Assembly (NCBI GenBank): GCA_045655125.1
Contig: JAZOOR010000050.1
Location: 282-24,281 of the forward strand
Length of the DNA stretch: 24,000 bases
Direction of reading: 5' to 3'
Source of the DNA: Oscillospiraceae bacterium
GTDB lineage: Bacteria; Bacillota; Clostridia; Oscillospirales; Ruminococcaceae
Both the position numbers and the translations under genes were made by a program. Shown here piece by piece: positions 5,205 to 22,136 of the stretch. Position 1 is the stretch's first letter; every line of letters begins with the position of its first letter. Below the pieces are notes generated by a model. It worked only from the letters and a program-made list of their open reading frames with translations, did not search any database and was not told where the DNA came from.

Positions 5205-5482
5205 AATTTTTAAAAGGCTATGACGAAGACGGTTTGGTGCTTTAATGCTTTACAGAGAGTCGATGGCAGGTGAAAATCGGCAGCAGAGTTCCAAAAACCT
5301 ATCACTTCTGAGCCGGAAGCCCGAAAGCCGTAATGGTTAGTAGACGTTTCCCGTGATTGCTGCGTAAAGGCATAGGAGTTGATAGACTCTAAGAGTGGTA
5401 GCTTAGGCTGCAATTTGAGTGGTACCGCGGATGTTTTTAACACCCGTCTCAAAGAATTTCTTTGAGACGGGTTCTTTATTTT
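5205..5482 (+). promoter_or_regulatory. T-box riboswitch leader 1, specifier read as AUC (Ile) at 5301-5303
   Basis: Stem I elements seen are the GA/K-turn TGACGAAG (5221-5228) paired with CTTC-TGA (5305-5311), the AG bulge AGAGAG (5254-5259) and the distal loop GGTGAAA (5269-5275). The T-box sequence is TTTGAGTGGTACCGCGG (5414-5430). A terminator hairpin follows at 5442-5472 with a T-rich tail. The 5' boundary is approximate. Confidence 0.88.
5442..5482 (+). terminator. Intrinsic terminator of T-box leader 1
   Basis: A 13-bp perfect stem pairs ACCCGTCTCAAAG with CTTTGAGACGGGT, followed by TCTTTATTTT. Its 5' arm lies 11 nt downstream of the T-box sequence (5414-5430), so the intervening segment plus this arm could form the competing antiterminator. 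Confidence 0.85.
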
Positions 5483-5504
5483 AACTTTTTAAGGAGGAAT
5501 TAAA

Positions 5505-7772
5505 ATGTCAACTGTTGCAAACGACAAGATGTACGAGGTGGCGATGCGAATTCGCGAGATGCGACTGATTGCAGGCTACAGTGAAAAAGAAATGGCTGAA
5601 AAAACCGAAACCGCGCTCGATACATACATAAAGCTTGAAGCAGGAGAATTAGACTTTCCTTTTTCTTTTATCCATAAATGCGCTCAGGTGTTTTCTATCG
5701 GTATGTCCGATCTTTTGGAGGGTGCAACTAGCGCCCGACTTACATCATACACCGTAACAAGACGCGGAAAAGGTCAGCAGACCGCAAAAGAGGACGGTAT
5801 CAATATCGCCAACCTCGCTCCCAAATTCAGAAATAAAATTGCTGAGCCTTACTGGGTAAAATATGATTTCGACCCCGCTCAGCAGAATAAACCTATTCAT
5901 TTAGCTACCCACAGCGGTCAGGAATTTGACCTTGTTATCAGCGGAAAGCTCAAGGTTCAGATAGGTGACCATATCGAAGTGCTTGAGGAGGGTGACAGCA
6001 TCTATTATGACTCCTCAACACCCCACGGTATGATAGCCGTAGACGGTCAGCAGTGTGTTTTTTGTGCAGTTGTTCTTCCCGGTGAAGACACCAAGGAAGA
6101 AACTGTTCGTCAGAGCATTGTTACTGCAAAAAAATCCGAGCCTCTTGTCTGCGAAAAATTTGTAAAAACTCAGGAAAACGAAAAGGGCGCCCTTGAGAAA
6201 ATTGAATTTACCAATACAGACACCTTTAACTTTGGCTTTGATATTGTAGATGAGATTGCAAATAAGTATCCAGACAAGCTTGCAATGCTGCATCTTGATA
6301 AAAATAAAAACGAGCGCCGCTTTACATTCAGAGATATCAAGCACTATTCAAGTCAGTGCGCTAACTACTTTACCTCGCTCGGAATTGGGCGCGGCGACAA
6401 GGTGATGCTTGTCTTAAAGCGCCACTACCAATTCTGGTTTGCGATGGTAGCTCTTCATAAAATCGGTGCCGTTGCAATTCCTGCAACCAATCAGCTTAAA
6501 GAGCATGATTTTGAATACCGCTTTAATGCCGCAGGCGTATCTGCAATCGTCTGCACTGCTGATGGTGACACCGCCGATATTGCCGCAGCTGCAGCTGAGA
6601 AATGTCCTCAGGTTAAGGCTAAGGTGCTTGTAGGCGGGAAAAAAGAGGGCTGGCATAACTTTGATGAGGAATACAGGCTTTTCTCTCGCAAATTTGAAAG
6701 ACCTGAAAATGCATCAGCAGGCGATGAAACCGCCCTCATGTTCTTTACTTCGGGTACAACGGGTAATCCCAAAATGGCTGCCCACAAGCACACCTATGCT
6801 CTGGGACATTTTGTAACCGCTAAGTACTGGCACTGCTGCGAGCGTGACGGACTGCACCTCACTATCTCCGATACGGGCTGGGGCAAGAGCCTTTGGGGTA
6901 AACTGTACGGTCAGTGGCTGTGCGAGGGCGCAGTGTTTGTCTATGACTTTGACCGCTTTGATGAAAATGACATTTTGCCGATGTTTGCAAAATACGGCAT
7001 CACCACCTTCTGCGCGCCGCCTACTATGCTGCGTATGCTCATTCGCGGTGATTTAAGCAAGTATGATTTAAGCTCTATCCATCATATGACAACTGCAGGT
7101 GAGGCATTAAACCCTGAGGTACACAAGCAGTTTAAAGCCGCAACGGGACTTGAGATTATGGAAGGCTTCGGACAGACCGAAACCACTCTTGCTATTGCAA
7201 ACCTTGTCGGCACAACTCCTAAAATCGGCTCAATGGGTAAGGCTTCTCCCCAGTTTGACCTTGATATTGTTGACCCCGATGGCAACAGTGTTCCGACGGG
7301 CGAGGTTGGCGAAATTGTTATCCACACAGATAAAGAAGTTTCTTGCGGACTCTTTAAGGAATATTATCTTGACGATGAAAAAACCTCTGATGCTTGGCAC
7401 GATGGACTTTATCACACAGGCGACACCGCTTGGCGCGATGAGGACGGATATTTCTGGTATGTTAGTCGTATTGACGATGTTATCAAGTCCTCAGGATACC
7501 GTATAGGACCTTTCGAGATTGAAAGCGTTATTATGGAGCTTCCCTATGTTGTTGAGTGCGGTGTTTCTGCTGCTCCCGATGAGGTTCGCGGTCAGGTTGT
7601 TAAGGCAAGCATAGTCTTAACAAAGGGTACCGAGGGAACTGAAGAGCTTAAAAAAGAAATTCAGCAGTATGTAAAGGAGCACACCGCTCCCTATAAGTAT
7701 CCCCGTGTTGTTGTATTCCGTGATAGCCTGCCCAAGACAATCAGCGGAAAAATTCAGAGGAATAAACTGTAA
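5505..7772 (+). CDS. Fusion protein: N-terminal XRE-type HTH + cupin domain, C-terminal AMP-forming medium/short-chain acyl-CoA synthetase (ACSM/MACS-like)
   Basis: AGGAGG lies at 5492-5497. The N-terminus has an HTH-like AMRIREMRLIAGYSEKEMAEKTE and a cupin core THSGQEFDLVISGKLKV...GDSIYYDSSTPHGM. The ligase motifs are FFTSGTTGNPKM, GFGQTE, YHTGDTAWRDEDGYFWYVSRIDDVIKSSGYRIGPFEIES and PKTISGKIQR. Confidence 0.85.
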   Translation: MSTVANDKMYEVAMRIREMRLIAGYSEKEMAEKTETALDTYIKLEAGELDFPFSFIHKCAQVFSIGMSDLLEGATSARLTSYTVTRRGKGQQTAKEDGINIANLAPKFRNKIAEPYWVKYDFDPAQQNKPIHLATHSGQEFDLVISGKLKVQIGDHIEVLEEGDSIYYDSSTPHGMIAVDGQQCVFCAVVLPGEDTKEETVRQSIVTAKKSEPLVCEKFVKTQENEKGALEKIEFTNTDTFNFGFDIVDEIANKYPDKLAMLHLDKNKNERRFTFRDIKHYSSQCANYFTSLGIGRGDKVMLVLKRHYQFWFAMVALHKIGAVAIPATNQLKEHDFEYRFNAAGVSAIVCTADGDTADIAAAAAEKCPQVKAKVLVGGKKEGWHNFDEEYRLFSRKFERPENASAGDETALMFFTSGTTGNPKMAAHKHTYALGHFVTAKYWHCCERDGLHLTISDTGWGKSLWGKLYGQWLCEGAVFVYDFDRFDENDILPMFAKYGITTFCAPPTMLRMLIRGDLSKYDLSSIHHMTTAGEALNPEVHKQFKAATGLEIMEGFGQTETTLAIANLVGTTPKIGSMGKASPQFDLDIVDPDGNSVPTGEVGEIVIHTDKEVSCGLFKEYYLDDEKTSDAWHDGLYHTGDTAWRDEDGYFWYVSRIDDVIKSSGYRIGPFEIESVIMELPYVVECGVSAAPDEVRGQVVKASIVLTKGTEGTEELKKEIQQYVKEHTAPYKYPRVVVFRDSLPKTISGKIQRNKL

Positions 7773-7824: not shown

Positions 7825-8098
7825 ATATTGAAAGGCATTGACGAAGAGTACACAAAGGAATGTCCCACAGAGAGATGGCGGCGGGTGAAAGTCCATCGGA
7901 AACAGCTTTTGTGTTTGTAGCTTCTGAGCCGAAAGGAAGAAAGCGTGCGCGTGAGTAGAACCTTTCCGTGACTGCTGCGTAAATGCATAGGAGTTGTTAG
8001 ACTCTAAGAGTGGCGGCGAGAGCTGCAATTTGAGTGGTACCGCGGGTGTATTTTACAGCACTCGTCTCAAAGTCATAGCTTTGGGGCGGGTGTTTTTT
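7825..8098 (+). promoter_or_regulatory. T-box riboswitch leader 2, specifier read as GUA (Val) at 7917-7919
   Basis: Elements seen are TGACGAAG (7839-7846) paired with CTTC-TGA (7921-7927), helix ACACAAA/TTTGTGT, AG bulge AGAGAG (7869-7874), distal loop GGTGAAA (7884-7890), T-box sequence TTTGAGTGGTACCGCGG (8029-8045) and a terminator at 8059-8098. The 3' half is close to identical to leader 1. Confidence 0.88.
8059..8098 (+). terminator. Intrinsic terminator of T-box leader 2
   Basis: A 14-bp stem pairs CACTCGTCTCAAAG with CTTTGGGGCGGGTG (three G-U pairs), with a 6-nt loop, followed by TTTTTT at 8093-8098. Confidence 0.82.
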
Positions 8099-8124
8099 CG
8101 TCCCGACAGAACGGAGAGAATGAA

Positions 8125-10413
8125 ATGAAACAGATTACAGGGCTTGATTTTAAAATTCAGGAAATGGCAGGGCGTATCCGCGAGCTTCGTGAGATTGTCG
8201 GTCTTTCTGCCGAGCAGATGGCAGAGAAGACAGATGTTTCAGTAGAGGAATATCTTCTTTGCGAGGAGGGCAAAAGTGACCTAAACTTTGCCTTCATCTA
8301 TCGTTGTGCTCTGGCTTTCGGTGTTAACGTTACCGATATTATCGAGGGTTACAGCCCTAAGCTACGCTCTTATACCGTTACAAGAAACGGCGCAGGTCAG
8401 CAGATAGCCAATGCCCACGGTATGACCTATTATAACCTTGCATATGCTTTTCAGAACAGAATTGCTGAGCCTCTTTATGTCCGCAGCGCATATGACGAGT
8501 CAGCACAGGGAAAGGATATAGAGCTTACCACCCATTCGGGACAGGAGTGCGATATAGTAATAGAGGGTAACCTTATGGTGCAGATAGGTGAGCATCGTGA
8601 GGTGCTTTCTGCAGGTGACAGCATTTATTTTGACAGCTCCACCCCCCACGGCATGATTGCTGTAAATGGTAAGGACTGTGTTTTCTATGCCATAGTTCTA
8701 AACCCGACGGGTGAGCCTATCCCTGAGTTTGCGGCTAAGCCTAAAATCCCCGAAACCGTTAAAATCCCCGATGATACACGCGAGAGAATTTACCGTAACT
8801 ATACCACCGTTAAAAAGAATGAAAACGGAACCCCCGTTTCCATTGAATTTAAAAATACCGAGAAATTCAATTTCGCCTTTGACCTTGTCGACGCTCTCGC
8901 AGAGCGTGAGCCCGAAAAGCTTGCTATGCTACATATCGACAAAGAGGGAAAGGAGCGCCGCTTTACCTTCTCGGATATCAGCCGCGCCTCAAGTCAGTGC
9001 GCTAACTACTTTAAGTCACTCGGCATAAAGAAGGGCGACCGCGTTATGCTGGTCTTGAAGCGTCACTACCAGTTCTGGTTTGCGACCATTGGCTTAAACA
9101 AGCTTGGCGCTATTGCAATCCCCGCAACAAATCAGCTTCTTGAACACGATTTTGAGTATCGCTTTAAGGCGGCAGGAGTAAACACAATTATCTGCACCGC
9201 TGACGGTGATACTGCTAGAGAGGTAGAGGCGGCCGCCGAGAAGTACGGAAAAATTAAAAACAAGCTTATTGTTAACGGCAAAAGAGAGGGCTGGCGCAGC
9301 TTTGATGAGGAGTACACCCTCTTTAATAACTCCTTTGAGCGCACAGAGGATTCTCCCTGCGGTGATGACCTGCTTCTTATGTTCTTTACTTCGGGAACAA
9401 CAGGGTATCCCAAAATTGCGGCTCATAACCACAAATATCCCCTCGGCCATTTTCACACTGCTAAATACTGGCATAATGTTGATCCCGACGGTCTGCACTT
9501 TACCATTTCCGATACAGGCTGGGCAAAATCTATGTGGGGCAAGCTCTATGGTCAGTGGCTGTGCGAGGCGGCAATATTTGTCTATGACTTTGATAGGTTT
9601 GATGCCGCTGAAATCCTGCCTATGTTTGCAAAGCATAATATAACAACCTTCTGTGCACCCCCCACAATGCTTAGAATGATGGTTAAGCAGGATATTTCTA
9701 AATATGACCTTTCTTCCGTAAAGCATATGACAACCGCTGGTGAAGCACTCAATCCTGAGGTTTACCGTCAATTTGAAAAAGCAACGGGACTTCAGATTTT
9801 AGAGGGCTTTGGACAGACAGAAAGTACAATGATAATAGGAAATATGCGCGGTGCCGCGCATAAGATTGGCTCAATGGGCAAGCCTGCGCCTATTTATGAT
9901 GTAGAGCTTGTAGATGCCGATGGAAACCCTGTGCCCACAGGTGAGCCGGGCGAAATCGTTATCAATGTCAAAAACGGTATGCCCTGCGGTTTATTTACCG
10001 GCTACTATGGTGATGAGGAGAAAACACGCGAAGTTCTGCACGATGGATATTACCATACCGGCGACACCGCCTGGCGCGATGAGGATGGATATTTCTGGTA
10101 TGTCGGCAGGGTTGATGATGTTATCAAGTCCTCGGGCTACCGCATAGGACCCTTTGAGATTGAAAGCGTTATTATGGAGCTTCCCTATGTTCTTGAGTGT
10201 GGTGTATCCGCCGTTCCTGATGAGGTCAGGGGACAGATAGTCAAGGCAAGCATAGTCTTAACAAAAGGCACAGAGGGAACCGAGGAGCTTAAAAAGGAAA
10301 TTCAGAATTATGTTAAGGAGCACACCGCTCCCTATAAATACCCTCGTGTTGTTGTTTTTCGCGATAGCCTCCCCAAAACAGTCAGCGGAAAAATTCAGCG
10401 TAATAAGCTATAA
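8125..10413 (+). CDS. Paralogous fusion protein: XRE-type HTH + cupin + AMP-forming acyl-CoA synthetase (ACSM/MACS-like)
   Basis: The architecture and motifs match 5505-7772: THSGQECDIVIEGNLMV...GDSIYFDSSTPHGM, FFTSGTTGYPKI, GFGQTE, YHTGDTAWRDEDGYFWYVGRVDDVIKSSGYRIGPFEIES and PKTVSGKIQR. GGAGAG lies at 8113-8118. Confidence 0.85.
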   Translation: MKQITGLDFKIQEMAGRIRELREIVGLSAEQMAEKTDVSVEEYLLCEEGKSDLNFAFIYRCALAFGVNVTDIIEGYSPKLRSYTVTRNGAGQQIANAHGMTYYNLAYAFQNRIAEPLYVRSAYDESAQGKDIELTTHSGQECDIVIEGNLMVQIGEHREVLSAGDSIYFDSSTPHGMIAVNGKDCVFYAIVLNPTGEPIPEFAAKPKIPETVKIPDDTRERIYRNYTTVKKNENGTPVSIEFKNTEKFNFAFDLVDALAEREPEKLAMLHIDKEGKERRFTFSDISRASSQCANYFKSLGIKKGDRVMLVLKRHYQFWFATIGLNKLGAIAIPATNQLLEHDFEYRFKAAGVNTIICTADGDTAREVEAAAEKYGKIKNKLIVNGKREGWRSFDEEYTLFNNSFERTEDSPCGDDLLLMFFTSGTTGYPKIAAHNHKYPLGHFHTAKYWHNVDPDGLHFTISDTGWAKSMWGKLYGQWLCEAAIFVYDFDRFDAAEILPMFAKHNITTFCAPPTMLRMMVKQDISKYDLSSVKHMTTAGEALNPEVYRQFEKATGLQILEGFGQTESTMIIGNMRGAAHKIGSMGKPAPIYDVELVDADGNPVPTGEPGEIVINVKNGMPCGLFTGYYGDEEKTREVLHDGYYHTGDTAWRDEDGYFWYVGRVDDVIKSSGYRIGPFEIESVIMELPYVLECGVSAVPDEVRGQIVKASIVLTKGTEGTEELKKEIQNYVKEHTAPYKYPRVVVFRDSLPKTVSGKIQRNKL

Positions 10414-10422
10414 GGTGATATA

Positions 10423-11088
10423 ATGGATTTTAAAAGAATCACTATGCTTTGCGGTCATTATGGCAGCGGAAAAACCAATGTTGCCGTAAATCTCGCACTT
10501 AAAATGGCAGAGAGCCGCGAAAACGTTGTGGCGCTCGATCTTGATATCGTAAACCCCTATTTCAGAACAAAGGATAGTATAAAGGAGCTGAAAGAGGCGG
10601 GAATTCGCCTTATTGCATCCTCTTATGCTAATACCAATGTTGATATTCCCGCGCTACCGCAGGAAATGTATGCAGTAACCGATGATAAGAGTATAACCGC
10701 GGTTTTAGATGTCGGTGGAGATGACAGAGGCGCACTTGCATTAGGCCGCCTTGCCCCCGCCATACTATCCGAAAACGATTATGAAATGCTTATGGTCATA
10801 AACTGCTACAGACCGCTTACAAAAACCGCCAAAGAGACCATTAAGGTTATGCGCGAGATAGAAACCGCCTGCGGCATTAAGTTTACGGGACTTGTCAACA
10901 ACTCAAATCTCGGCGCAATCACAACGCAGGAGGATATAATCGCCTCGCTGCCGTATGCGCAGGAGATTTCCGAAAAAACGGGGCTTCCCCTCGTTTACAC
11001 AAGTGTTCGTGAGGACATTTCTGAGGGACTTATGGAAAAAGTACCAAATCTTTTCCCATTATCCTTGCAGAAAAACCTCTTGATATAA
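10423..11088 (+). CDS. P-loop NTPase of unknown role (SIMIBI-like; Walker A GHYGSGKT)
   Basis: Motifs seen are Walker A GHYGSGKTN, then ALDLDIVNPYF and LDVGGDDRG (Walker B/switch-like). It lies 9 nt after the ligase stop and 31 nt before the ferredoxin gene. The family assignment is tentative. Confidence 0.6.
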   Translation: MDFKRITMLCGHYGSGKTNVAVNLALKMAESRENVVALDLDIVNPYFRTKDSIKELKEAGIRLIASSYANTNVDIPALPQEMYAVTDDKSITAVLDVGGDDRGALALGRLAPAILSENDYEMLMVINCYRPLTKTAKETIKVMREIETACGIKFTGLVNNSNLGAITTQEDIIASLPYAQEISEKTGLPLVYTSVREDISEGLMEKVPNLFPLSLQKNLLI

Positions 11089-11119
11089 CTTTTCGATTTT
11101 ATGAAAGGGAGTAATACAT

Positions 11120-11326
11120 ATGGCAAAACTCACATTTAAAACCGACAACTGTAAGGGCTGCGGACTTTGTATTGATGCCTGCCCCAAGAAGCTCTTGAGA
11201 CTTGCAGCAGACAAAATCAATTTAAAGGGACACCACCCCGCAGAAATTATTGATGAGGCTGCGTGCGTTGGATGTGCATCCTGTGCAATGATGTGTCCCG
11301 ACTGCATTATTAAGGTAGAAAGGTAG
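11120..11326 (+). CDS. 2x[4Fe-4S] ferredoxin, delta-type subunit of 2-oxoacid:ferredoxin oxidoreductase
   Basis: It is 68 aa with two CxxCxxCxxxCP motifs (CKGCGLCIDACP and CVGCASCAMMCP). It sits immediately upstream of the alpha subunit. Confidence 0.85.
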   Translation: MAKLTFKTDNCKGCGLCIDACPKKLLRLAADKINLKGHHPAEIIDEAACVGCASCAMMCPDCIIKVER

Positions 11327-11335
11327 TGAAATAAT

Positions 11336-12403
11336 ATGGCAGATAAAGTTTTGATGAAAGGAAACGAAGCGATAGCAGAGGCTGCAATTTTAGCAGGCTG
11401 CCGCCATTACTTCGGATATCCTATCACTCCGCAAACCGAAATTGCCGCATATATGGCAAAGAAAATGCCTAAAATCGGCGGCTGCTTTTTGCAGGCTGAG
11501 AGTGAAATTGCCGCTATCAATATGGTATACGGTGTTTCCTCTACAGGTAAAAGAGTTATGACCTCGTCGTCATCTCCCGGAATTTCCTTAAAGGGTGAGG
11601 GACTTTCGTATCTCGCAGGTGCTGACCTGCCCGCGCTTATTGTTAATGTTCAGCGCGGCGGACCCGGACTTGGCGGTATTCAGCCCTCGCAGTCTGACTA
11701 TTTCCAGGCTACAAGAGCCGCAGGCCACGGCGACTTTCATATGATAGTCCTCGCTCCCGCATCTGTTCAGGAGATGGCAGAGCTTACTGTAAAAGGCTTC
11801 GAGCTTGCAGATACATACAGAATGACAGCTATGATTTTGGCAGACGGAACTATGGGACAAATGATGGAGCCTGTTTCTCTTGATTTTGATGTTAAGCCTA
11901 TGCCCGCAAAGCCCTGGGCAACTGTTGGAACTAAGATGGAAAGAGAGCACAATATTACAAACTCCCTCTTCCTCGTTCCTGAAGACCTTGAAAAGATAAA
12001 CTTTGAGCGCTATGAGCGCTATAAAAAGATTGAGGAAACCGAAGTTATGTACGAGGAGTATATGATGGAGGATGCCGAAATCTGCATTGCAGCCTTTGGT
12101 ATTGCCGCAAGAGTTTCCAAAAATGCCGTTAATGAGGCAAGAAAAATGGGAATTAAGGTAGGTCTTATCCGCCCTATCACCCTCTGGCCTTTCCCCAAGG
12201 CTCCTTTCAAGAAGGCCGCAGAAAAAGTAAAGCAGATTATCTCTGTTGAACTTTCTATGGGACAGATGATTGAGGATGTCAAGATGGCATCTGAGTGCAA
12301 GGTTCCCGTAACATTAGTAAACCGCGTCGGCGGAATGATTCCCTCGCCCGAGCAGGTTTTAGAGGCAATAGTCGAGGCGGCTAAAAACGGAGGTGCAAAA
12401 TAA
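11336..12403 (+). CDS. 2-oxoacid:ferredoxin oxidoreductase alpha subunit (context suggests branched-chain 2-oxoacid, VOR-like)
   Basis: The N-terminus MKGNEAIAEAAILAGCRHYFGYPITPQTEI and QAESEIAAINMVYG...SSPGISL are typical of OFOR alpha subunits. Substrate cannot be read from the sequence by eye. Confidence 0.85.
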   Translation: MADKVLMKGNEAIAEAAILAGCRHYFGYPITPQTEIAAYMAKKMPKIGGCFLQAESEIAAINMVYGVSSTGKRVMTSSSSPGISLKGEGLSYLAGADLPALIVNVQRGGPGLGGIQPSQSDYFQATRAAGHGDFHMIVLAPASVQEMAELTVKGFELADTYRMTAMILADGTMGQMMEPVSLDFDVKPMPAKPWATVGTKMEREHNITNSLFLVPEDLEKINFERYERYKKIEETEVMYEEYMMEDAEICIAAFGIAARVSKNAVNEARKMGIKVGLIRPITLWPFPKAPFKKAAEKVKQIISVELSMGQMIEDVKMASECKVPVTLVNRVGGMIPSPEQVLEAIVEAAKNGGAK

Positions 12404-13161
12404 TGGCAGTTGTATTTGATAAACCCCATGCATTAACCGATGCTCCTATGCATTACTGCCCCGGCTGTACACACGGTATAGTTCACCGCCTTGTTGCCGA
12501 GGTTATTGATGAATTGGGCATCGAGGGCAGAACTATAGGTATTGCTCCCGTTGGCTGCTCTGTTATGGCTTATAACTATTTTGCCTGTGATATGATTGAG
12601 GCTGCACACGGCAGAGCTCCCGCAGTTGCAACAGGTGTTAAGCGTGCCGACCCCGAAAACCACATTGTTTTCACCTATCAGGGCGATGGCGACCTCGCTT
12701 CAATCGGTATGGCTGAAACTGTTCATGCTGCCGCAAGAAATGAGAATATTACCGTTATCTTTATAAATAATGCTATTTACGGTATGACAGGCGGCCAAAT
12801 GGCTCCCACCTCGCTTCCCGGTCAGGTTACACAGACTTCACCCTACGGCAGAGATACAAGCCACTGCGGTTTTCCCGTTAAGGTTTGCGAAATGCTTTCG
12901 CAGCTTGATGGACCCGAGTACTTAGAAAGAGTCACCGTTAATAATGTTAAGAATATCCGCGCTGCTAAAAAGGCTATTAAAAAAGCTTTTCAGAATCAGG
13001 TAGAGGGCAAAGGCTTCTCACTTATTGAAGTTGTTTCTTCCTGCCCTACAAACTGGGGTATGACACCGGGGGCGGCTCTTAAGTGGATTGACGATAATAT
13101 GCTTCCTTACTACCCTCTCGGTGTGTATAAGGACAGAAGCGCAAAAAAGGAGGAAGAATAA
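12403..13161 (+). CDS. 2-oxoacid:ferredoxin oxidoreductase beta (TPP-binding) subunit
   Basis: Motifs seen are YCPGCTHGIV, the TPP motif GDGDLASIG...NNAIYGMTGGQ, and a [4Fe-4S] cysteine pattern. It overlaps the alpha stop by 1 nt. Confidence 0.88.
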   Translation: MAVVFDKPHALTDAPMHYCPGCTHGIVHRLVAEVIDELGIEGRTIGIAPVGCSVMAYNYFACDMIEAAHGRAPAVATGVKRADPENHIVFTYQGDGDLASIGMAETVHAAARNENITVIFINNAIYGMTGGQMAPTSLPGQVTQTSPYGRDTSHCGFPVKVCEMLSQLDGPEYLERVTVNNVKNIRAAKKAIKKAFQNQVEGKGFSLIEVVSSCPTNWGMTPGAALKWIDDNMLPYYPLGVYKDRSAKKEEE

Positions 13162-13694
13162 TGGCTACAAAACAGTACCTGTTTTCAGGCTTCGGCGGTC
13201 AGGGAATTTTGTTTTCGGGTAAATTCTTAGCCTATAAGGGTCTGACTGAAGGCAAAAATGTAAGCTGGCTCCCCTCATATGGCCCCGAAATGCGCGGAGG
13301 AACTGCAAGCTGTAGCGTTATCATAAGTGATGAGGCTGTAGGCTCTCCTATCGTTTCAAATCCCGATGTTCTTGTTGCTATGAACCTGCCCTCCCTTGAT
13401 AAGTTTGAGGATAGCGTTGCAAAGGGCGGCATTATCATCGCAGATTCCACCCTCATTGAAAGAAAAGTTAAGCGCGATGATGTAACAGTTTACTATGTTC
13501 CCGCCACCCGCCTTGCAAGTGAGAATGACATTCCCACCCTCGCCAATATGATTATTATCGGCAAGCTTATGCAGGCAACAGGCGAGTATAGCGAAGAGGG
13601 CGTAAACACCGCTCTCTCCAAGGTTATTTCGGCAAAACGCGCCAATATGCTTGAAGCAAACTTCAAGGCAATCAAAATCGGCGCAGAGTATTAA
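13161..13694 (+). CDS. 2-oxoacid:ferredoxin oxidoreductase gamma subunit
   Basis: FSGFGGQGILFSGKFLA...SYGPEMRGGTASCSV is the OFOR gamma signature. It overlaps the beta stop by 1 nt. Confidence 0.88.
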   Translation: MATKQYLFSGFGGQGILFSGKFLAYKGLTEGKNVSWLPSYGPEMRGGTASCSVIISDEAVGSPIVSNPDVLVAMNLPSLDKFEDSVAKGGIIIADSTLIERKVKRDDVTVYYVPATRLASENDIPTLANMIIIGKLMQATGEYSEEGVNTALSKVISAKRANMLEANFKAIKIGAEY

Positions 13695-13711
13695 GTCAGG
13701 AGGAAAAGGAA

Positions 13712-14776
13712 ATGCAGATTTCTTTTACAAAAACCACTTGTCCTAAGGAAAAACCCGATAGCAGCAATCTCGGATTTGGTAAAATCTTTACCGACCATAT
13801 GTTTATGATGGATTATTCAAGAGAGAAAGGCTCTTGGTACAATGCAAGAATAGTTCCCTTTGAGAACATTTCTCTGCACCCTGCATCAACAGTTCTTCAC
13901 TACGGCTCTGAGATTTTTGAAGGACTTAAAGCTTATAGAAGAGCCGATGGCAAGGTTCAGCTTTTCCGTCCTATCGAGAATATCCGCAGAATGAACAGCT
14001 CCGCAGAGCGCCTCTGCCTGCCTCAGATTCCCGAGGAGGATGCGCTGCAGGTTCTCACCGAGTTTGTAAAAATTGAGCAGGACTGGACTCCGTCTGCTTC
14101 GGGCACATCCCTCTACCTGCGCCCCTTTATGTTCGGAAATGATGAATCACTCGGAGTTCACGCCGTTCATAATGCTACCTTTGTTATCATAGCTTCACCC
14201 GTTGGCAGCTATTATAAAGAAGGCATCAACCCCGTTAAGATTATGATTGAGGATGAGGATGTCAGAGCTGTCCGCGGCGGCACAGGCTATGCAAAATGCG
14301 GCGGTAATTACGCTGCAAGTAACCGTGCAGGCGAGAGAGCAGAGCAGAAAGGCTATTCTCAGGTTCTCTGGCTCGATGGCGTTGAGAGAAAATATATTGA
14401 GGAAGTCGGCGCTATGAATGTTATGTTCAAAATCGCAGGCGAAATCGTAACCCCCGCACTTAGCGGTTCAATTCTCCCAGGCATCACAAGAAAATCAATT
14501 ATTGAGCTTTTAAATAGCGAAGGCTATAAGGTAAGTGAGAGACTTCTCTCTATCGATGAGCTCGAAAAAGCTCTTGAAAACGGAACACTTGAAGAGGCTT
14601 GGGGCTGCGGCACCGCCGCTGTTGTTTCCCCCATCGGTGAGCTTTGCTACAAGGATAAAAAGTACACCGTTTCGGGCGGCAAAATCGGAGAGGTCACTCA
14701 GCACCTTTACGATACTTTAACAGGTATCCAGTGGGGTAAATTAAAGGATAACTTCGGCTGGACAGTAGAACTCTAA
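13712..14776 (+). CDS. ilvE: Branched-chain amino acid aminotransferase (class IV, long form)
   Basis: Motifs seen are FTDHMF, LHYGSEIFEGLKAYR, YLRPFMFG, GGTGYAKCGGNYAAS, PGITRKS and GCGTAAVVSPI. AGGAGG lies upstream. Confidence 0.9.
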   Translation: MQISFTKTTCPKEKPDSSNLGFGKIFTDHMFMMDYSREKGSWYNARIVPFENISLHPASTVLHYGSEIFEGLKAYRRADGKVQLFRPIENIRRMNSSAERLCLPQIPEEDALQVLTEFVKIEQDWTPSASGTSLYLRPFMFGNDESLGVHAVHNATFVIIASPVGSYYKEGINPVKIMIEDEDVRAVRGGTGYAKCGGNYAASNRAGERAEQKGYSQVLWLDGVERKYIEEVGAMNVMFKIAGEIVTPALSGSILPGITRKSIIELLNSEGYKVSERLLSIDELEKALENGTLEEAWGCGTAAVVSPIGELCYKDKKYTVSGGKIGEVTQHLYDTLTGIQWGKLKDNFGWTVEL

Positions 14777-14780
14777 ATTA

Positions 14781-14813: not shown

Positions 14814-14859
14814 AGTGAATAATGAATAATTCTAGTGGCGATTTATGAGTTGCCCGTTT

Positions 14860-15066: not shown

Positions 15067-15083
15067 AAAATTACCTTTTGAGC

Positions 15084-15257: not shown

Positions 15258-15271
15258 ACATATTACCTCCG

Positions 15272-15334
15272 TTACAATTTGTAATTATATTGTATTACTA
15301 AATGTGCAATAAATAACTATTGCATTTGTAATGC
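15272..15334. promoter_or_regulatory. Divergent control region with three inverted repeats (candidate operators)
   Basis: The repeats are TTACAA-t-TTGTAA (15272-15284), TGCAATA-n6-TATTGCA (15305-15324) and GCATT-tgt-AATGC (15322-15334). ATTTGTAAT occurs twice (15277-15285 and 15324-15332). A possible + strand promoter is TTGCAT 15320-15325 / TACAAT 15343-15348 with a 17-nt spacer. Confidence 0.5.
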
Positions 15335-15365
15335 GTTAGTGCTACAATAAAGTGGAGGTGAGAAA

Positions 15366-15530
15366 ATGGACGAGTATAAAAAGCCGTGCCTTATATTGTT
15401 TAATGCATTTACCGATGCCAAGAAGAGCCTGATGGAAAACGATATGCTAAGAGCAATAGAAATTCTTGATACTGCACAGATGAAATCTGAGGAAGCATTT
15501 ATTTGCTTTGATGAGCAGCAAAAGGGATAA
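15366..15530 (+). CDS. Hypothetical small protein, 54 aa, absent from the ORF track
   Basis: Hand translation gives MDEYKKPCLILFNAFTDAKKSLMENDMLRAIEILDTAQMKSEEAFICFDEQQKG. A strong RBS GGAGGTG (15354-15360) lies 5 nt upstream of the ATG. I recognise no family. Confidence 0.45.
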   Translation: MDEYKKPCLILFNAFTDAKKSLMENDMLRAIEILDTAQMKSEEAFICFDEQQKG

Positions 15531-15586
15531 CAATAAAAAGAGAGGTTTCTATCTTTGTTTTTACCTTTTGAAATTTTAAAAAACTG

Positions 15587-15615
15587 TTGACAAGGCACAG
15601 ATGCGGTGATATAAT
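15587..15615 (+). promoter_or_regulatory. Sigma-A type promoter P3: -35 TTGACA 15587-15592, 17-nt spacer, extended -10 TGaTATAAT 15607-15615
   Basis: Both hexamers are consensus with a TGn extension. The -35 and about 20 nt upstream are near-identical to P1. Confidence 0.8.
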
Positions 15616-15622
15616 AGGTGCA

Positions 15623-15892
15623 TATTTCAAATGCGATGATGGAATTATTTCTTATTAGGTCTTTCATCAAAGAGAGCCGCCGATGGTGTGAATGCGGTAT
15701 GAAAGTGATAGGGAAGTCTCGTTCCGGAGCAGAGCGGCTGAAATTTTTAAGTAAGCGGCTTCGGCTTGCCCCGTTACCTTGGCAGAAGGCTTGATAGAGC
15801 CTTACAAAGTGGCTGTGTTTTCGCAGCAATCAGGGTGGTACCGCGAAATATTTCGTCCCTGAGACCGAAATTGTCGGTCTCAGGGTTTTTTT
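15623..15892 (+). promoter_or_regulatory. T-box riboswitch leader 3, specifier probably CUC (Leu) at 15718-15720 (alternative GUC, Val, 15716-15718)
   Basis: Elements seen are K-turn GCGATGA-GGAA (15633-15644) paired with TTCC-GGAGC (15722-15730), helix CTTTCAT/ATGAAAG, AG bulge AGAGAG (15671-15676), distal loop GGTGTGAA (15686-15693), T-box sequence AGGGTGGTACCGCG (15832-15845) and a terminator at 15857-15892. Confidence 0.85.
15857..15892 (+). terminator. Intrinsic terminator of T-box leader 3
   Basis: An 11-bp perfect stem pairs CCCTGAGACCG with CGGTCTCAGGG, with a 7-nt loop, followed by 7 T (15886-15892). Confidence 0.88.
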
Positions 15893-15928
15893 ATTGCCCG
15901 AGACGGCATAATGAAAGGAAAGAAAGCA

Positions 15929-17308
15929 ATGAAACAAATCAAAATCGCAGACACAACGCTTTGCAGAAAAGAGGGCGCATTTTCTTTTAAAGAGAAAATC
16001 GAAATTGCAAGACAGTTAGAGCGCCTTTGCGTTGACACTATTGAGCTTCCCGAAATTGAAAACGCAAAAACCGACATCTTGCTTGTAAAAACTATATCCT
16101 CTTTTGTTAAAAAGAGCATCATCTCGGTTGCCGCAGGCAGCAGCCTTAAGAGTATTGAAAATGCCGCTGTAGCTCTCTGTAATGCCGCAAAGGCAAGAAT
16201 TCGCATTGAGCTTCCCATTTCACCCGTCGGAATGGAATATACCTGCCGCAAAAAAGCTCCCAAAATGCTCGAATACATAAAAGAGTGCGTAAAATGTGCG
16301 CGTGAAAAGTGCGATGACGTTGAGTTTTGCGCAGTTGATGCCACCCGCGCTGATAAAGGATACTTAAAAGAGGCTATGGACGCTGCTATCAGCGCAGGAG
16401 CTACCTCTGTTACTATTTGCGACAGCGCCGACGAAATGATGCCCGATGATTTTGCGGCATACATTAAAGAAAATGCTAAGGATATTGCCGTTCCCGTCGC
16501 AGTTTCCTGTGAGAATAAAAACGGGCTTGCGGTTGCAACCGCAATTCTCTCTGTAAGAGCGGGAGCAGACTGTGTTAAAACTTCTGTAAACGGCGAAGGT
16601 GTGCCTCTTGACACCTTTGCAACTATGATTCGCAACTGCGGAAACAACTATGGCTTTGAAACTAAAATCCGCAGCACCGAGCTTCACAGAATTGTAAAGC
16701 AGATAAACTGGATAGTTGGTGCTAACGAAAATGATAAGTCTGTTGTTACCGTTTCTTCAAACGACGAAATGGGAATTCACCTTGATGTTAACGATAGTAA
16801 AGATGATGTCTGCGCTGCAACACAAAAGCTTGGCTATGACCTTTCACAAGAGGACAAGGCAAGAGTTTACGAGGAATTTCTGCGCGTTGCAGATAAAAAG
16901 ACTGTCGGAGCAAAGGAGCTTGATGCAATTGTTGCAAGCGTTGCTTTGCAGGTGCCCGCAACCTATCAGCTTGTAAGCTATGTTATAAATAACGGAAACA
17001 TTATTTCCGCCACCGCACAGATAACCGTAAATAAAAACGGAGAGCATATGCAGGGCTTCTCACTCGGTGACGGACCTATCGATGCCGCATTTTTAGCCAT
17101 CGACCAGATAATCGGTCACCACTATGAGCTTGATGATTTCCAGATTCAGTCGGTAACCGAGGGCAAGGAGGCTATGGGCTCGGCTTTAGTTAAGCTTCGC
17201 GCAGGCGGAAAGCTCTATAGCGGAAACGGAATTTCAACCGATATTATAGGCGCATCTATTCGCGCATATCTTAATGCCGTTAACAAAATTGTTTATGAGG
17301 AGGCATAA
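15929..17308 (+). CDS. 2-isopropylmalate synthase-like protein (HMGL-like TIM barrel + LeuA-type C-terminal domain) with substituted catalytic motifs
   Basis: The layout is LeuA-like: IKIADTTL... at the N-terminus, and GDGPIDAAFLAI and GNGISTDIIGASIRAYLNAVNKI at the C-terminus. Canonical DTTLRDGEQ is DTTLCRKEG, HxHNDxG is SCENKNG and GERAGN is GEGVPL. I prefer the ATG at 15929 (MKQIKIADTTL, preceded by AAAGGAAAG) over 15911. Confidence 0.7.
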   Translation: MKQIKIADTTLCRKEGAFSFKEKIEIARQLERLCVDTIELPEIENAKTDILLVKTISSFVKKSIISVAAGSSLKSIENAAVALCNAAKARIRIELPISPVGMEYTCRKKAPKMLEYIKECVKCAREKCDDVEFCAVDATRADKGYLKEAMDAAISAGATSVTICDSADEMMPDDFAAYIKENAKDIAVPVAVSCENKNGLAVATAILSVRAGADCVKTSVNGEGVPLDTFATMIRNCGNNYGFETKIRSTELHRIVKQINWIVGANENDKSVVTVSSNDEMGIHLDVNDSKDDVCAATQKLGYDLSQEDKARVYEEFLRVADKKTVGAKELDAIVASVALQVPATYQLVSYVINNGNIISATAQITVNKNGEHMQGFSLGDGPIDAAFLAIDQIIGHHYELDDFQIQSVTEGKEAMGSALVKLRAGGKLYSGNGISTDIIGASIRAYLNAVNKIVYEEA

Positions 17309-17310
17309 AA

Positions 17311-19830
17311 ATGAAACTTTCCTTTTCAACAAAGGGATGGCATAACAACACCTTTTCCGAGTTTTGCGATATAGCAGTTGACTTGGGGTTTAAAGGAATA
17401 GAGCTTCATAATATTGGCGGCCGCCTGTTTACAGAGCGCGACGGCGCGTTTTATGACTATGCCGCCGCCGCAACAATGCGCCGCCTTTATGAAAAAGGTC
17501 TCACCATTCCCTGTATTGATACAATCTGCGATATTGCAGACGAGAGCCAAAGAGACACAGCAAAAGAGGAAATCGAAAAGTGCCTTTCTATTGCAGAAAA
17601 TCTGCATATTCAGAATATTCGTCTGCGCGCATTTGCAAAAGAGGATAGCGAGGGCGCGCTGAAAACAGTTTCAGCACTGCTTTCAGAAATGATGCCCAAA
17701 GCGGAGGAAAAGGGTGTTGCCTTAGCGCTCGAGACCTCCGGACTTTTTGCAAGCACCGAGATTCTCCGCGATATGCTCGACTCTTTTGCCTGCGATAATT
17801 TAGGCGCACTGTGGAACTTTTCTGCCGCCTATTTTGAGAGCGGCGAGGAGCCTGAGACTGTTATTAAAAACCTCGGCGCATATGTCCGCCACGTGCATTT
17901 TAATGATGCGCAGAAAACCAAAAACGGTATGGAATACTGCCTTGCGGGTGAGGGTGAGCTTCCCATAAAAGAGCTTATGCTCGCTCTGCGCTCTGTAAAT
18001 TATGACGGATTTATCTCTCTCGTCTGGGACCCTACATGGTGCTTAGAAATTGACGATATGGAGATTATCTTTTCACAGTTTACAAACTTTATGAAGCAGT
18101 TTAAGGCAGTTTCCCGAAACGAGAAACAACTATACTACAACCGCGCACATACAGGCAAATTTGTATGGGAAAAGGACAAGATAATTGACCTTACATTCTC
18201 GCAGGTTTTAGACAGAATGGTAGAGGAATTTCCCGACCAGTATGCCTTTAAATACACAACCCTTGACTATACGCGCACATACAGCGAGTTTCGCGATGAC
18301 GTTGACACCTTTGCCCGCGCCCTTATTTCAATGGGAGTAAAGGCAGGCAGCAAGGTTGCTGTATGGGCATCAAATGTGCCGCAGTGGTATATTGCGTTCT
18401 GGGCAACAGTAAAAATCGGCGCGGTCTTGGTTACTGTTAACACCGCCTATAAAATTCACGAGGCAGAGTATTTGCTACGTCAGTCCGACACACATACCCT
18501 TGTTTTAACCGAGGGTGCAAAGGACACTCACTATGGTAAAATAATTTCCGAGCTTTGCCCTGAGCTTGAATGTAAAGAGGCTTCAAAACCTCTTCACAGT
18601 AAGCGTCTTCCGTTCCTTAGGAATGTTATCACAGTAGGATTTAAGCAGAAAGGCTGTATGACTTGGAACGAGGCTATCGAGCGCGCCGCTCAGGTTTCGC
18701 CTGAAGAGGTCAGAAGAATGGCAGCCGCCGTTGATAAGGATGATGTCTGCAATATGCAGTACACCTCAGGCACAACAGGCTTCCCCAAGGGAGTTATGCT
18801 CACCCACTATAACGTTGTTAATAACGGAAAATATATCGGCGACCATATGGATTTGTCAACTGCAGACCGTATGATGATTCAGGTTCCTATGTTCCACTGC
18901 TTTGGAATGGTGCTTTCTATGACCGCTTCAATGACGCACGGAACTACAATGTATCCTCTGCCTTATTTTTCTCCCAAACCCGCGCTCGCTTGCGTTCACA
19001 ATGAGCATATTACCACCTTTAACGGTGTTCCTACTATGTTTATCGCTATGATGGAGCATCCCGACTTTGCCAAGACGGATTTTTCATATATCAGAACGGG
19101 AATTATGGCGGGCGCAAACTGCCCTGCCGACCTTATGAAAAAGGCAACGGAAGTTATGAATATGAAAGAGATAGTTTCTGTTTACGGACAGACCGAGGCA
19201 AGCCCCGGCTGCACTATGAGCAGTTACTATGACACACTCGAGGTTCGCACAGAGACTGTCGGCAGTGCCTTTGCAAATGTCGAGTGCAAAATCATCGACC
19301 CCGAAACGGGCGAGGACTGCCCCGACGGAGTTGACGGTGAGTTTGTTGCACGCGGCTACAATATTATGAAAGGCTATTACAAAATGCCTGCTGCAACCGC
19401 CGCCGCTATTGATAAGGATGGCTGGCTTCATACAGGTGACCTTGCCTGCCGCGCTCCTGACGGTACTTATCGCATTACAGGCAGACTTAAGGATATGATT
19501 ATCCGCGGCGGTGAGAACATTTATCCTAAGGAAATTGAGGAGTTTATTTACACCAATCCCAAGGTCAGCGATGTTCAGGTTATTGGAGTTCCCGACAAGC
19601 AGTATGGTGAAGAAATTATGGCATGTATCATACTTAAAGAGGGAGAGAGCATGACTGCTGACGAGATGAAAGCCTATATCGGAGCAAGTATGGCTCGTCA
19701 TAAGGTTCCGAGGTATATTGACTTTGTAGATAGCTTCCCGATGAATGCCGCGGGGAAAATCCTTAAATACAAAATGCGCGAGGATGCGGCTAAAAAACTC
19801 GGTCTTGATAAGGCGGGGAACAAAAAATGA
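17311..19830 (+). CDS. Fusion protein: N-terminal xylose-isomerase-like (AP endonuclease 2 family) TIM barrel + C-terminal AMP-forming acyl-CoA ligase (FadD/YngI-like)
   Basis: Residues 1 to about 265 have the pattern FKGIELHN...LALETSG...VRHVHFNDA...DGFISLVWDP, typical of sugar-phosphate isomerase/epimerase-like barrels. The rest carries MQYTSGTTGFPKGVMLTH, VYGQTE, GWLHTGDL, GRLKDMIIRGGENIYPKEIE and MNAAGKILK. GAGGAGG lies upstream, and there is a 2-nt gap from the previous gene. Confidence 0.8.
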   Translation: MKLSFSTKGWHNNTFSEFCDIAVDLGFKGIELHNIGGRLFTERDGAFYDYAAAATMRRLYEKGLTIPCIDTICDIADESQRDTAKEEIEKCLSIAENLHIQNIRLRAFAKEDSEGALKTVSALLSEMMPKAEEKGVALALETSGLFASTEILRDMLDSFACDNLGALWNFSAAYFESGEEPETVIKNLGAYVRHVHFNDAQKTKNGMEYCLAGEGELPIKELMLALRSVNYDGFISLVWDPTWCLEIDDMEIIFSQFTNFMKQFKAVSRNEKQLYYNRAHTGKFVWEKDKIIDLTFSQVLDRMVEEFPDQYAFKYTTLDYTRTYSEFRDDVDTFARALISMGVKAGSKVAVWASNVPQWYIAFWATVKIGAVLVTVNTAYKIHEAEYLLRQSDTHTLVLTEGAKDTHYGKIISELCPELECKEASKPLHSKRLPFLRNVITVGFKQKGCMTWNEAIERAAQVSPEEVRRMAAAVDKDDVCNMQYTSGTTGFPKGVMLTHYNVVNNGKYIGDHMDLSTADRMMIQVPMFHCFGMVLSMTASMTHGTTMYPLPYFSPKPALACVHNEHITTFNGVPTMFIAMMEHPDFAKTDFSYIRTGIMAGANCPADLMKKATEVMNMKEIVSVYGQTEASPGCTMSSYYDTLEVRTETVGSAFANVECKIIDPETGEDCPDGVDGEFVARGYNIMKGYYKMPAATAAAIDKDGWLHTGDLACRAPDGTYRITGRLKDMIIRGGENIYPKEIEEFIYTNPKVSDVQVIGVPDKQYGEEIMACIILKEGESMTADEMKAYIGASMARHKVPRYIDFVDSFPMNAAGKILKYKMREDAAKKLGLDKAGNKK

Positions 19831-20642
19831 TAGCAAACTACAAGGTTATTGACGCGCATTGTCACGTCTACCCCGAAAAAATTGCCGCAGCAGCAGTAAA
19901 TGCAACAGATAAATTTTATGATACTGTTTCAGCATTTGACGGCAGCACTGACGCTCTGCTTTCACAGTGTCAGCGCGAGGGAGTTGACCACGCGATTATT
20001 CAGTCTGTCGCAACAACCCCGAAGCAAGTTTCAAGCATAAACCAATTTATTGCAAAAACCGTAGAGGATAGCGGCGGAAAATTTACAGGTCTCGGAACAC
20101 TTCATCCCGACAGCTCAGATATCGCTGCTGACGTGCGTGAAATAATTGAGTTAGGACTCCACGGAGTCAAGCTTCACCCAGATATTCAAAGGTTTAAGAT
20201 AGACGATTACCGCTGCCTTAAAATCTATGAGCTGTGCGAAAGAGAGGGCCTTCCCATTTTAATGCACACGGGTGATAACAGATATGATTTTTCAAATCCC
20301 AACCGTCTGCTGCCTATTTTAGACATCTACACCGAGCTTGTTGTAGTTGGCGCGCATCTGGGCGGCTGGTCTATATGGGAAGAGGCGGGAGAGGTTTACC
20401 CGAGCCATAAAAACTTTTATGTTGACACCTCATCAACGCTGCACTTTTGTGGCATAGAAATTATGAAAAGAACTATAGAAAAATACGGGGCGGATAAGGT
20501 AATGTTTGCAACCGACTATCCTATGGGAGAGCAAAAGCGGGAGATTGATGCCCTGCTTTCTATGAATTTTTCAGACGAGGATTACAAAAAAATCTTCTCT
20601 GAAAACGCAAAAAAGGTCTTTAAAATTAAAGCAAATATTTAA
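19827..20642 (+). CDS. Amidohydrolase-2 family (TIM-barrel metal-dependent hydrolase/decarboxylase-like) protein
   Basis: VIDAHCHVYP (HxH), GVKLHPD, LMHTGD and FATDYPM (Asp on the last strand) match the metal-ligand pattern of this family. The ATGA start overlaps the upstream stop by 4 nt. Confidence 0.7.
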   Translation: MIANYKVIDAHCHVYPEKIAAAAVNATDKFYDTVSAFDGSTDALLSQCQREGVDHAIIQSVATTPKQVSSINQFIAKTVEDSGGKFTGLGTLHPDSSDIAADVREIIELGLHGVKLHPDIQRFKIDDYRCLKIYELCEREGLPILMHTGDNRYDFSNPNRLLPILDIYTELVVVGAHLGGWSIWEEAGEVYPSHKNFYVDTSSTLHFCGIEIMKRTIEKYGADKVMFATDYPMGEQKREIDALLSMNFSDEDYKKIFSENAKKVFKIKANI

Positions 20643-20646
20643 AATT

Positions 20647-20680
20647 ACCTTTGCGGCGGCACAAAAGCCGCCGCAAAGGT
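20647..20680. terminator. Long perfect hairpin after the amidohydrolase gene (probable terminator, no clean T tract)
   Basis: A 14-bp perfect stem pairs ACCTTTGCGGCGGC with GCCGCCGCAAAGGT around the loop ACAAAA. The downstream sequence is ATAAAAAC, so the U-tract is missing. Confidence 0.6.
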
Positions 20681-20700
20681 ATAAAAACTTGCATTTTCTA

Positions 20701-20863: not shown

Positions 20864-20913
20864 CCGCAGCCGTTTATGCCGCTTTGCGCGCCATAGGTGG
20901 ATGCGGTTTTTTT
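20864..20913 (+). terminator. Intrinsic terminator (attenuator) between the leader ORF and the aminotransferase gene
   Basis: An extended imperfect hairpin spans 20864-20906. The outer arms are CCGCAGCCGTT / GGTGGATGCGG, and the inner stem is TATGCCGC / GCGCCATA with one C-C mismatch. It is followed by 7 T (20907-20913), 27 nt before the ATG at 20941. Confidence 0.75.
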
Positions 20914-20940
20914 ATTGATTTTTTAAAGGAGACAGTAAAA

Positions 20941-22125: not shown

Positions 22126-22136
22126 GGAGTAAAATA

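Follow-up and report, generated by a model that had tools for sequence, protein, structure and literature searches.

A leucine-specifying T-box operon of uncultured Clostridia encodes a predicted LeuA-derived pseudoenzyme and a candidate isovalerate-CoA ligase

Introduction

Why should a T-box leader that reads a leucine codon stand in front of three genes that encode neither an aminoacyl-tRNA synthetase, nor an ilv-leu enzyme, nor a transporter? The question is raised by a 24,000-nucleotide stretch of an Oscillospiraceae genome (assembly GCA_045655125.1, contig JAZOOR010000050.1, forward-strand positions 282 to 24,281; hereafter, the window), in which such a leader precedes genes for a LeuA-like protein, for a fusion of a TIM barrel with an ANL acyl-CoA ligase and for an amidohydrolase. 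CUC-specifier T-boxes are familiar from Bacillus subtilis, where they precede the ilv-leu operon and leuS. Earlier genome-wide T-box surveys found the specifier to agree with the downstream gene in every case in which the role of that gene was known (PMC2494555). Two surveys of T-box regulons, searched for acyl-CoA or oxidoreductase genes, mention neither.

The setting in which an answer may be sought is that of branched-chain volatile fatty acids, or isoacids. That fibre-degrading Clostridia of the rumen and gut need or use isoacids has been known for decades, and isoacids are fed to ruminants as supplements. To our knowledge, the genes and regulation of one such use, the conversion of isovalerate to leucine, have not been defined so far. 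The formation of leucine by rumen bacteria through carboxylation of isovalerate is classical physiology (cited in PMC7356843); the conversion and habitat proposed here are the same, and to that physiology, described without genes or regulation, the present locus adds candidate genes and a candidate regulatory logic. On balance, we consider it somewhat probable that the Leu T-box operon is the leucine arm of an isoacid salvage regulon.

The leader and its specifier

The operon is headed by a sigma-70 type promoter (15587..15615, forward strand, as are all elements of the leader) that matches the consensus at 12/12 positions, with TTGACA and TATAAT separated by a 17-nucleotide spacer and a TG before the -10 hexamer. 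The T-box leader that follows (15627..15863) matches RF00230 over the full model (positions 1-219) with 123.9 bits (E=1.9e-27), against a gathering score of 93, and its Stem I spans 15629-15730. The T-box sequence GGGUGGUACCGCG lies at 15833-15845 and has UGGU (15836-15839) as its acceptor bulge; this bulge is compatible with an A73, as found in tRNA-Leu, and is present in 45/45 leaders scanned by pattern. An intrinsic terminator (15857..15892) is made up of a GC-rich 12-bp stem (15857-15885), with arms CCCUGAGACCG...CGGUCUCAGGG, and a U7 run. Since CCCU provides both the first four bases of the terminator 5' arm and the 3' strand of the antiterminator helix bearing GGGUGGUACCGCG, antiterminator and terminator are mutually exclusive, as in classical transcriptional T-boxes. 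In Stem I, GGAA (15641-15644) pairs with UUCC (15722-15725), which leaves GAAGU-CUC-G-UUCC as the 3' strand of the specifier loop, with CUC (15718-15720) next to the closing helix and followed by G15721. An earlier sequence-only reading of the window had described a consensus promoter, a complete T-box, the UGGU bulge and a hand-drawn Stem I; all of these were recovered, and the hand-drawn pairs of the framing and inner helices are those used by the covariance model.

The reading of the specifier was examined in relatives of the operon. The fusion protein has at least 597 matching stretches in a collection with one genome per species, indicating that the system is widespread, and 80 of these loci, with 64-84% identity, were analysed. 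All 80 belong to metagenome-assembled or other uncultured genomes that bear the names Acutalibacteraceae, Oscillospiraceae or "Clostridia", and rumen or gut is given as the source of the sample in many of their record titles. A first RNA model, derived from an RNAalifold consensus, placed a spurious hairpin over the specifier and was replaced by a covariance model of Stem I with a hand-set structure, built from 37 leaders and run on the window and the 80 loci. With this model, 51 of the 65 testable loci show a T-box within the 450 nucleotides that precede the LeuA-like gene. The specifier columns of these 51 leaders read CUC in 48 cases and CUG in two (L014 and L059), the remaining one being a weak partial match that was left unread. 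The helix framing the specifier is 98.6% paired over the 37 orthologous leaders and shows compensatory changes in three of its four pairs, values that were matched by no shuffle or slid register.

The bases preceding the codon vary among leaders (GU, GC, AU, CU, UU), turning a GUC frame into GCC, AUC, UUC and others, and the GUC (Val) frame is therefore not conserved. Both GUC and UCU were rejected as specifiers, the CUC/CUG frame being the only one that is conserved, and it adjoins the covarying helix. As an internal control, the model was also aligned to the T-boxes that precede cupin-ligase genes, both in the window and in eight loci; there, the same columns read AUC or GUA. The specifier of the T-box at 15627-15863 is Leu: the CUC followed by a purine that had been proposed from the window recurs as CUC or CUG in 50 orthologous leaders, and the valine codon that would have spoken against it did not emerge. 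The leader shares with classical Leu T-boxes (RF00230) a Stem I with K-turn, a codon followed by a purine, a UGGN bulge, competing antiterminator and terminator structures and the CUC codon itself; it differs from them in the genes it precedes. The RNA is thus an ordinary member of the T-box family, but the content of its regulon is not ordinary.

A conserved gene pair with an accessory amidohydrolase

All three genes lie on the forward strand. The gene for the LeuA-like protein occupies 15929..17308 and encodes 459 amino acids. Its longest open reading frame in the window translation starts at 15911, but the start is probably the ATG at 15929, because 459 amino acids is the length both of an NCBI protein with 100% identity and of the genes as called in close relatives. 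The fusion gene encodes 839 amino acids, with a xylose-isomerase-like TIM barrel as its N-domain (amino acids 1-270; 17311..18120) and an ANL acyl-CoA ligase as its C-domain (amino acids about 296-839; 18196..19830), and is followed by the gene for an Amidohydrolase_2 protein of 271 amino acids (19827..20642). The tight coupling that had been noted in the window is seen at both junctions, with a 2-nucleotide gap between the stop at 17308 and the start at 17311, and a 4-nucleotide ATGA overlap at 19827-19830.

Among the relatives, the LeuA-like gene is directly upstream of the TIM::ligase gene in all 69 loci with enough upstream sequence, and an amidohydrolase gene is present in 45 of the 70 loci with enough downstream sequence, directly adjacent in 42. 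The core of the operon therefore consists of the LeuA-like and TIM::ligase genes, with the amidohydrolase as an accessory member; of the synteny initially expected for the three genes, that of the first two holds throughout and that of the third does not. Clustering of open reading frames over the 80 loci yields a P-loop protein, the subunits of a Vor-type 2-oxoacid:ferredoxin oxidoreductase and IlvE as recurrent neighbours, joined by cupin-ligases in a few cases. In 38 of the 80 loci, Vor or IlvE is found no more than 6 kb away, and some genomes (L027 and L028) have the core pair fused behind ilvE. Every other gene family in this clustering is limited to eight loci at most, and neither a transporter nor a further enzyme is conserved nearby.

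A LeuA-like protein without its catalytic residues

When aligned to solved structures of isopropylmalate synthase (IPMS), the substrate- and metal-binding motif DTTLRDGEQ of LeuA and its metal motif HCHNDLG are seen to have become DTTLCRKEG and SCENKNG in the window protein. Measured by the LeuA family with a cut-off of 532 bits (NF002086), the protein reaches 289 bits at best, it falls far below all LeuA equivalog cut-offs, and NCBI labels its family as hypothetical protein. Its C-terminal domain, on the other hand, matches LeuA_dimer (PF08502) over positions 4-130 of 131 with 104.6 bits (E=5e-30). An AlphaFold model features a confident, HMGL-like TIM barrel (predicted local distance difference test, pLDDT, about 90) and a C-terminal domain made of two beta-beta-beta-alpha units. 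The best Foldseek matches of this model are IPMS and MAM synthase, with more than 530 columns aligned to full-length Mycobacterium tuberculosis LeuA and a root-mean-square deviation of 1.7-1.8 Å to IPMS catalytic domains. The protein hence resembles LeuA, a DRE-TIM metallolyase (PDB 1sr9, 3fig, 3rmj), in its two-domain fold and its regulatory domain, and differs from it in that the Arg-Asp pair and both histidines of the metal-binding HxH are absent in 52/52 orthologues.

The distribution of sequence conservation within the protein is uneven. When both domains are compared over one set of 51 genomes, identity to the window protein averages 76% in the regulatory domain and 48% in the barrel, and the family motifs of the regulatory domain (GDGPIDA and STDII...AY...A.NK) are invariant. 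From these patterns and from the model we conclude that the protein is a putative LeuA-derived pseudoenzyme, with selection apparently acting on its allosteric domain. Its description as a degenerate IPMS-like protein was therefore apt as regards the loss of the Arg-Asp pair and HxH, but not if taken to mean decay, since the protein is conserved and its regulatory domain strongly constrained. The inactive active site, the strong conservation of the regulatory domain and the obligatory pairing with the ligase together suggest a leucine-binding regulatory subunit, or a leucine sensor acting in trans, a role that we regard as possible but short of probable. Its chief rival is a role in scaffolding or channelling.

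The ligase domain and the isoleucine and valine units

The ligase domain matches AMP-binding (309 bits) and AMP-binding_C (62 bits), and its core motifs (YTSGTTGxPKG, YGQTE, TGD, GRxKD and the C-terminal GK) are all present in the translation. At least 85% of the 80 orthologues retain them, and for most of the motif residues the figure is 97% or more. With a mean identity of 82%, no other part of the system is as well conserved as this domain. Among NCBIfam families it matches PRK12583 best (658 bits, cut-off 832), and not the MbcS family NF047394. A tblastn search of plasmid records returned unfused homologues at 42-50% identity. Three of them, from Paracoccus yeei, Methylobacterium and Bacillus velezensis, align over 99% of the length of the domain with 42-48% identity and belong to operons of leucine/isovalerate catabolism, alongside genes for methylcrotonyl-CoA carboxylase subunits, HMG-CoA lyase and an isovaleryl-CoA or acyl-CoA dehydrogenase. 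Such YngI-type AMP-binding proteins, encoded within yngJIHGFE in Bacillus and within liu clusters in Alphaproteobacteria, are the closest unfused relatives found and are tied to the isovaleryl skeleton. They differ from the fusion in being catabolic and in lacking the TIM domain, the LeuA-like partner and the T-box, and we know of no work that has established their own substrate.

Two further T-box units lie upstream on the same strand, as the sequence-only reading had indicated. A T-box with an AUC (Ile) specifier precedes a gene for a cupin::MbcS-like acyl-CoA ligase (5211..7772), and one with a GUA (Val) specifier heads genes for an HTH-cupin::MbcS-like ligase (with a helix-turn-helix, HTH, domain), a P-loop protein, a ferredoxin, a VorB-type oxidoreductase of three subunits and IlvE (7829..14776). 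The two leaders (5211-5454 and 7829-8072) score 88.2 and 84.1 bits (E about 1e-17 to 1e-18), and are accompanied by near-consensus promoters (5169-5197 and 7788-7817) and terminators (5442-5472 and 8057-8094); both fall below the gathering score of 93, so default Rfam annotation would miss them. Their ligases reach 437-445 bits with NF047394, short of the 850-bit cut-off, and the NCBIfam cut-offs for VorB and IlvE are both exceeded.

In Staphylococcus aureus, purified MbcS uses 2-methylbutyrate and isobutyrate, and is poor on isovalerate (PMC10026030). As the Ile and Val ligases of the window are MbcS-like, a separate and different ligase would be expected for isovalerate. The fusion ligase shares about 25% identity with its MbcS-like paralogues. 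The ligases of the Ile and Val units resemble MbcS, which salvages external isoacids as a short branched-chain acid:CoA ligase (PMC10026030), but the fusion ligase belongs to another ANL clade, has a TIM domain where the MbcS-like paralogues have a cupin, and its proposed product would feed amino-acid synthesis, whereas that of MbcS feeds lipid synthesis. Taken together, the Leu T-box, the Vor and IlvE neighbours, the poor activity of MbcS on isovalerate and the presence of relatives in leucine/isovalerate operons make the fusion ligase most likely an isovalerate-CoA ligase, as predicted from sequence and context.

The TIM domain and the amidohydrolase

The TIM domain of the fusion matches PF01261 (AP_endonuc_2) at 88 bits, and its model (pLDDT 90.5) is about equally similar, at a template-modelling (TM) score of about 0.75, to SCO6571, AsbF, IolI and Art22, so that the fold search returns generic family members and points to no specific function. 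A search for stand-alone close relatives of the domain returned only fragments of fusion proteins. Profile alignment to Art22, AsbF and MJ1311 puts the metal-binding Glu-Asp-His-Glu tetrad of the family at positions 141, 169, 196 and 238, which in the window read E141-N169-H196-V238 and depart from the canonical EDHE. Across the 80 orthologues the tetrad is intact in 42 and broken, mostly as ENHV, in 38, and the domain is never deleted. In the lineage of the window, one of roughly half that have lost the metal site while keeping the domain, a structural or regulatory role is thus favoured over essential chemistry; the additional TIM-barrel reaction that had been envisaged is accordingly doubtful there, with two of the four metal ligands replaced. 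In Paracoccus, a "sugar phosphate isomerase" gene overlaps that of the ligase homologue, but a conserved link between TIM barrel and ligase was dismissed there, as this gene is convergently oriented and belongs to another operon, and its product is unrelated to the TIM domain of the fusion (E=9.6).

The amidohydrolase matches Amidohydrolase_2 (PF04909) with 106 bits, and its residues D9, H11, H13, H117, H147, H177 and D230 are invariant in 32 orthologues. It looks catalytically competent by these residues, and is dispensable in a third of the genomes. The closest solved structure is 3irs (BB4693), itself uncharacterised, followed by weaker matches to aromatic-acid decarboxylases of the ACMSD/LigW type. 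The idea that the amidohydrolase might compensate for an inactive TIM domain was discarded: the counts (24/7 vs 21/18, Fisher p=0.048) are weak and were not taken as evidence.

A model for the operon and its rivals

In the leucine arm model, uncharged tRNA-Leu(GAG) would pair with the CUC specifier and the UGGU bulge, favouring the antiterminator over the terminator stem at 15857-15885, and transcription from the consensus promoter would then run into the operon. The ligase domain would convert isovalerate, ATP and CoA into isovaleryl-CoA, which the upstream Vor-type oxidoreductase would reductively carboxylate to 2-oxoisocaproate, and IlvE would transaminate this to leucine. The pseudo-LeuA would not be an enzyme of the route, but would impose feedback by free leucine on the ligase, atop the control exerted at the tRNA level. 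The leucine arm had been suggested from the window alone, and is supported by the AUC and GUA specifiers of the upstream units, each controlling an MbcS-like ligase, by the preference of MbcS for other substrates and by the occurrence of ligase relatives in isovalerate operons. In its most specific form, the model holds that an unrelated enzyme, the isovalerate-CoA ligase, has acquired a LeuA-derived pseudoenzyme as its leucine sensor in trans, with the partly degenerate TIM barrel as docking domain, resulting in double control by tRNA-Leu charging and free leucine. We advance this combination tentatively, as somewhat unlikely to hold in all its parts. If true, the feedback module of a lost biosynthetic pathway would have moved onto the salvage pathway that replaces it.

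Several observations weigh against the model. The operon has no T-box in front of it in 14 of the 65 testable loci, and a PDB sequence search with the regulatory domain of the LeuA-like protein alone gave no matches. A complex between pseudo-LeuA and the fusion protein is a prediction from the adjacency of their genes. The specificity of the ligase is not readable from its sequence, three of the six unfused homologues inspected lie in unrelated contexts, and the homologous ligase of liu/yng operons could activate acetoacetate instead of isovalerate. Lastly, additional chemistry in the operon is possible, because half of the orthologues keep the TIM tetrad and the amidohydrolase keeps its catalytic residues.

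This last point can be extended into a different model, in which the operon encodes an undescribed multi-step route to a leucine precursor, with the TIM domain, the amidohydrolase and perhaps the LeuA-like barrel, by means of non-canonical residues, as catalysts, and the substrate of the ligase is not isovalerate. The invariant HxH, H, H and D of the amidohydrolase, the E-D-H-E tetrad of 42/80 fusion orthologues, the persistence of the TIM domain and the translational coupling of the three genes are all in keeping with such a route. Against it, the amidohydrolase is absent from 25 of the 70 testable loci, the tetrad is broken in 38 of the 80 orthologues, the window included, and the LeuA-like barrel is the least conserved part and lacks the Arg-Asp pair and HxH in every orthologue. 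Moreover, no further enzyme genes are conserved nearby, and the ligase, Vor and IlvE alone already explain the synteny, all of which makes a multi-step route distinctly unlikely. The conserved neighbours bear also on the proposal that isovaleryl-CoA serves as a primer for iso-odd branched-chain membrane fatty acids, or enters a liu/yng-like catabolism, instead of yielding leucine. Ligases of the MbcS type do serve lipid synthesis, as in S. aureus (PMC10026030), and homologues of the ligase domain occur in catabolic liu/yng operons. Yet induction by uncharged tRNA-Leu would be senseless for catabolism or for lipid primers, genes for ivd, methylcrotonyl-CoA carboxylase or HMG-CoA lyase are found in none of the 80 loci, and Vor and IlvE connect an acyl-CoA to an amino acid, so that a lipid or catabolic destination appears very improbable.

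A milder departure from the leucine arm model accepts the isovalerate-CoA ligase and takes the LeuA-like protein for a structural partner, a scaffold, a channelling subunit (e.g. binding acyl-CoA or 2-oxoisocaproate) or a relic kept for translational coupling. Strict pairing across a 2-nucleotide gap and retention of the barrel fold at high model confidence are compatible with these roles, and the binding of leucine by the LeuA-like protein is itself a prediction. Neither a scaffold nor a relic, however, predicts that constraint should be concentrated on the regulatory domain (76%, against 48% for the barrel), or that the family motifs of that domain should be invariant, and we consider these roles fairly unlikely.

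Implications for T-box regulons and isoacid salvage

Neither this operon, nor a LeuA pseudoenzyme, nor a bacterial isovalerate-CoA ligase was found described in a literature search, which also gave nothing relevant on BB4693/3irs; the impression that this gene combination under a T-box is undescribed thus stands as far as that search extends. The operon extends the content of T-box regulons beyond genes for aminoacyl-tRNA synthetases, biosynthesis and transport, and its LeuA-like protein would represent a clean case of a pseudoenzyme keeping only the allosteric domain. Furthermore, Ile, Val and Leu T-boxes each label a candidate isoacid-CoA ligase beside Vor and IlvE, and through these labels ligase specificity and regulation become directly testable.

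Variation among loci and genomic setting

Five loci (L051, L065, L068, L072 and L075) share the order LeuA-like gene, fusion gene, ilvE, P-loop gene and Vor genes, with neither amidohydrolase nor T-box, and their regulation must differ. In one of them, L068, the LeuA-like gene starts near 4570-4600, and a scan of the upstream region with Rfam matched no leader of any other kind. Elsewhere, in L067, a T-box of 119.9 bits (1880-2123, minus strand) precedes a divergently transcribed gene for an unfused AMP-binding ligase; it was aligned poorly by the Stem I model, with an apparent ACG in the specifier columns. In the window, a palindromic GC-rich hairpin with a perfect 15-bp stem (20646..20681) follows the stop codon of the amidohydrolase gene. 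The scan places it on the minus strand and there is no clear U-run on the plus strand, its function as operon terminator being uncertain.

The MbcS-like ligases of the Ile and Val units (5505-7772 and 8125-10413) carry an N-terminal cupin or an XRE-type HTH plus cupin, one enzyme thus being fused to a DNA-binding domain. In Parabacteroides distasonis (L088, 6389-8632), a separate XRE-family gene lies directly upstream of a gene for a YngI-type ligase, which suggests a recurrent link of XRE/cupin regulators with short-chain acyl-CoA ligases in gut bacteria. The P-loop protein of the Val unit (10423-11088, 221 amino acids) has weak matches to CbiA, ParA and Zeta-toxin and none in NCBIfam. Its gene lies upstream of ferredoxin-VorBAC in the window and in every related locus showing both (the cluster comprises 25 loci), and its product may assist the oxidoreductase as an accessory factor that has gone unrecognised. 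Within the same unit, a match to mir-22 (13879-13956) was set aside as a chance hit, at 22 bits against 48.

The spacer between ilvE and the Leu T-box (14780-15580) is a variable insertion site, the T-box coming directly after ilvE in most loci. In the window it holds two small minus-strand genes, encoding an XRE HTH protein (14860-15066) and a 57-amino-acid open reading frame (15084-15257); in a 93%-identical relative (L081, 8723-9271) it holds a GNAT acetyltransferase gene, and in another (L089, 2035-5563) genes for a dockerin protein and an extracytoplasmic function (ECF) sigma factor. The salvage cluster as a whole is embedded in a block of amino-acid biosynthesis genes, with argC, argJ, argB, argD and argF upstream (352-5153), and an aminotransferase gene and pheA (chorismate mutase-prephenate dehydratase, CM-PDT) downstream (20884-23225), followed in close relatives (L081, 15012-21380) by aroB, aroC, aroE/aroK, aroQ and aroA.

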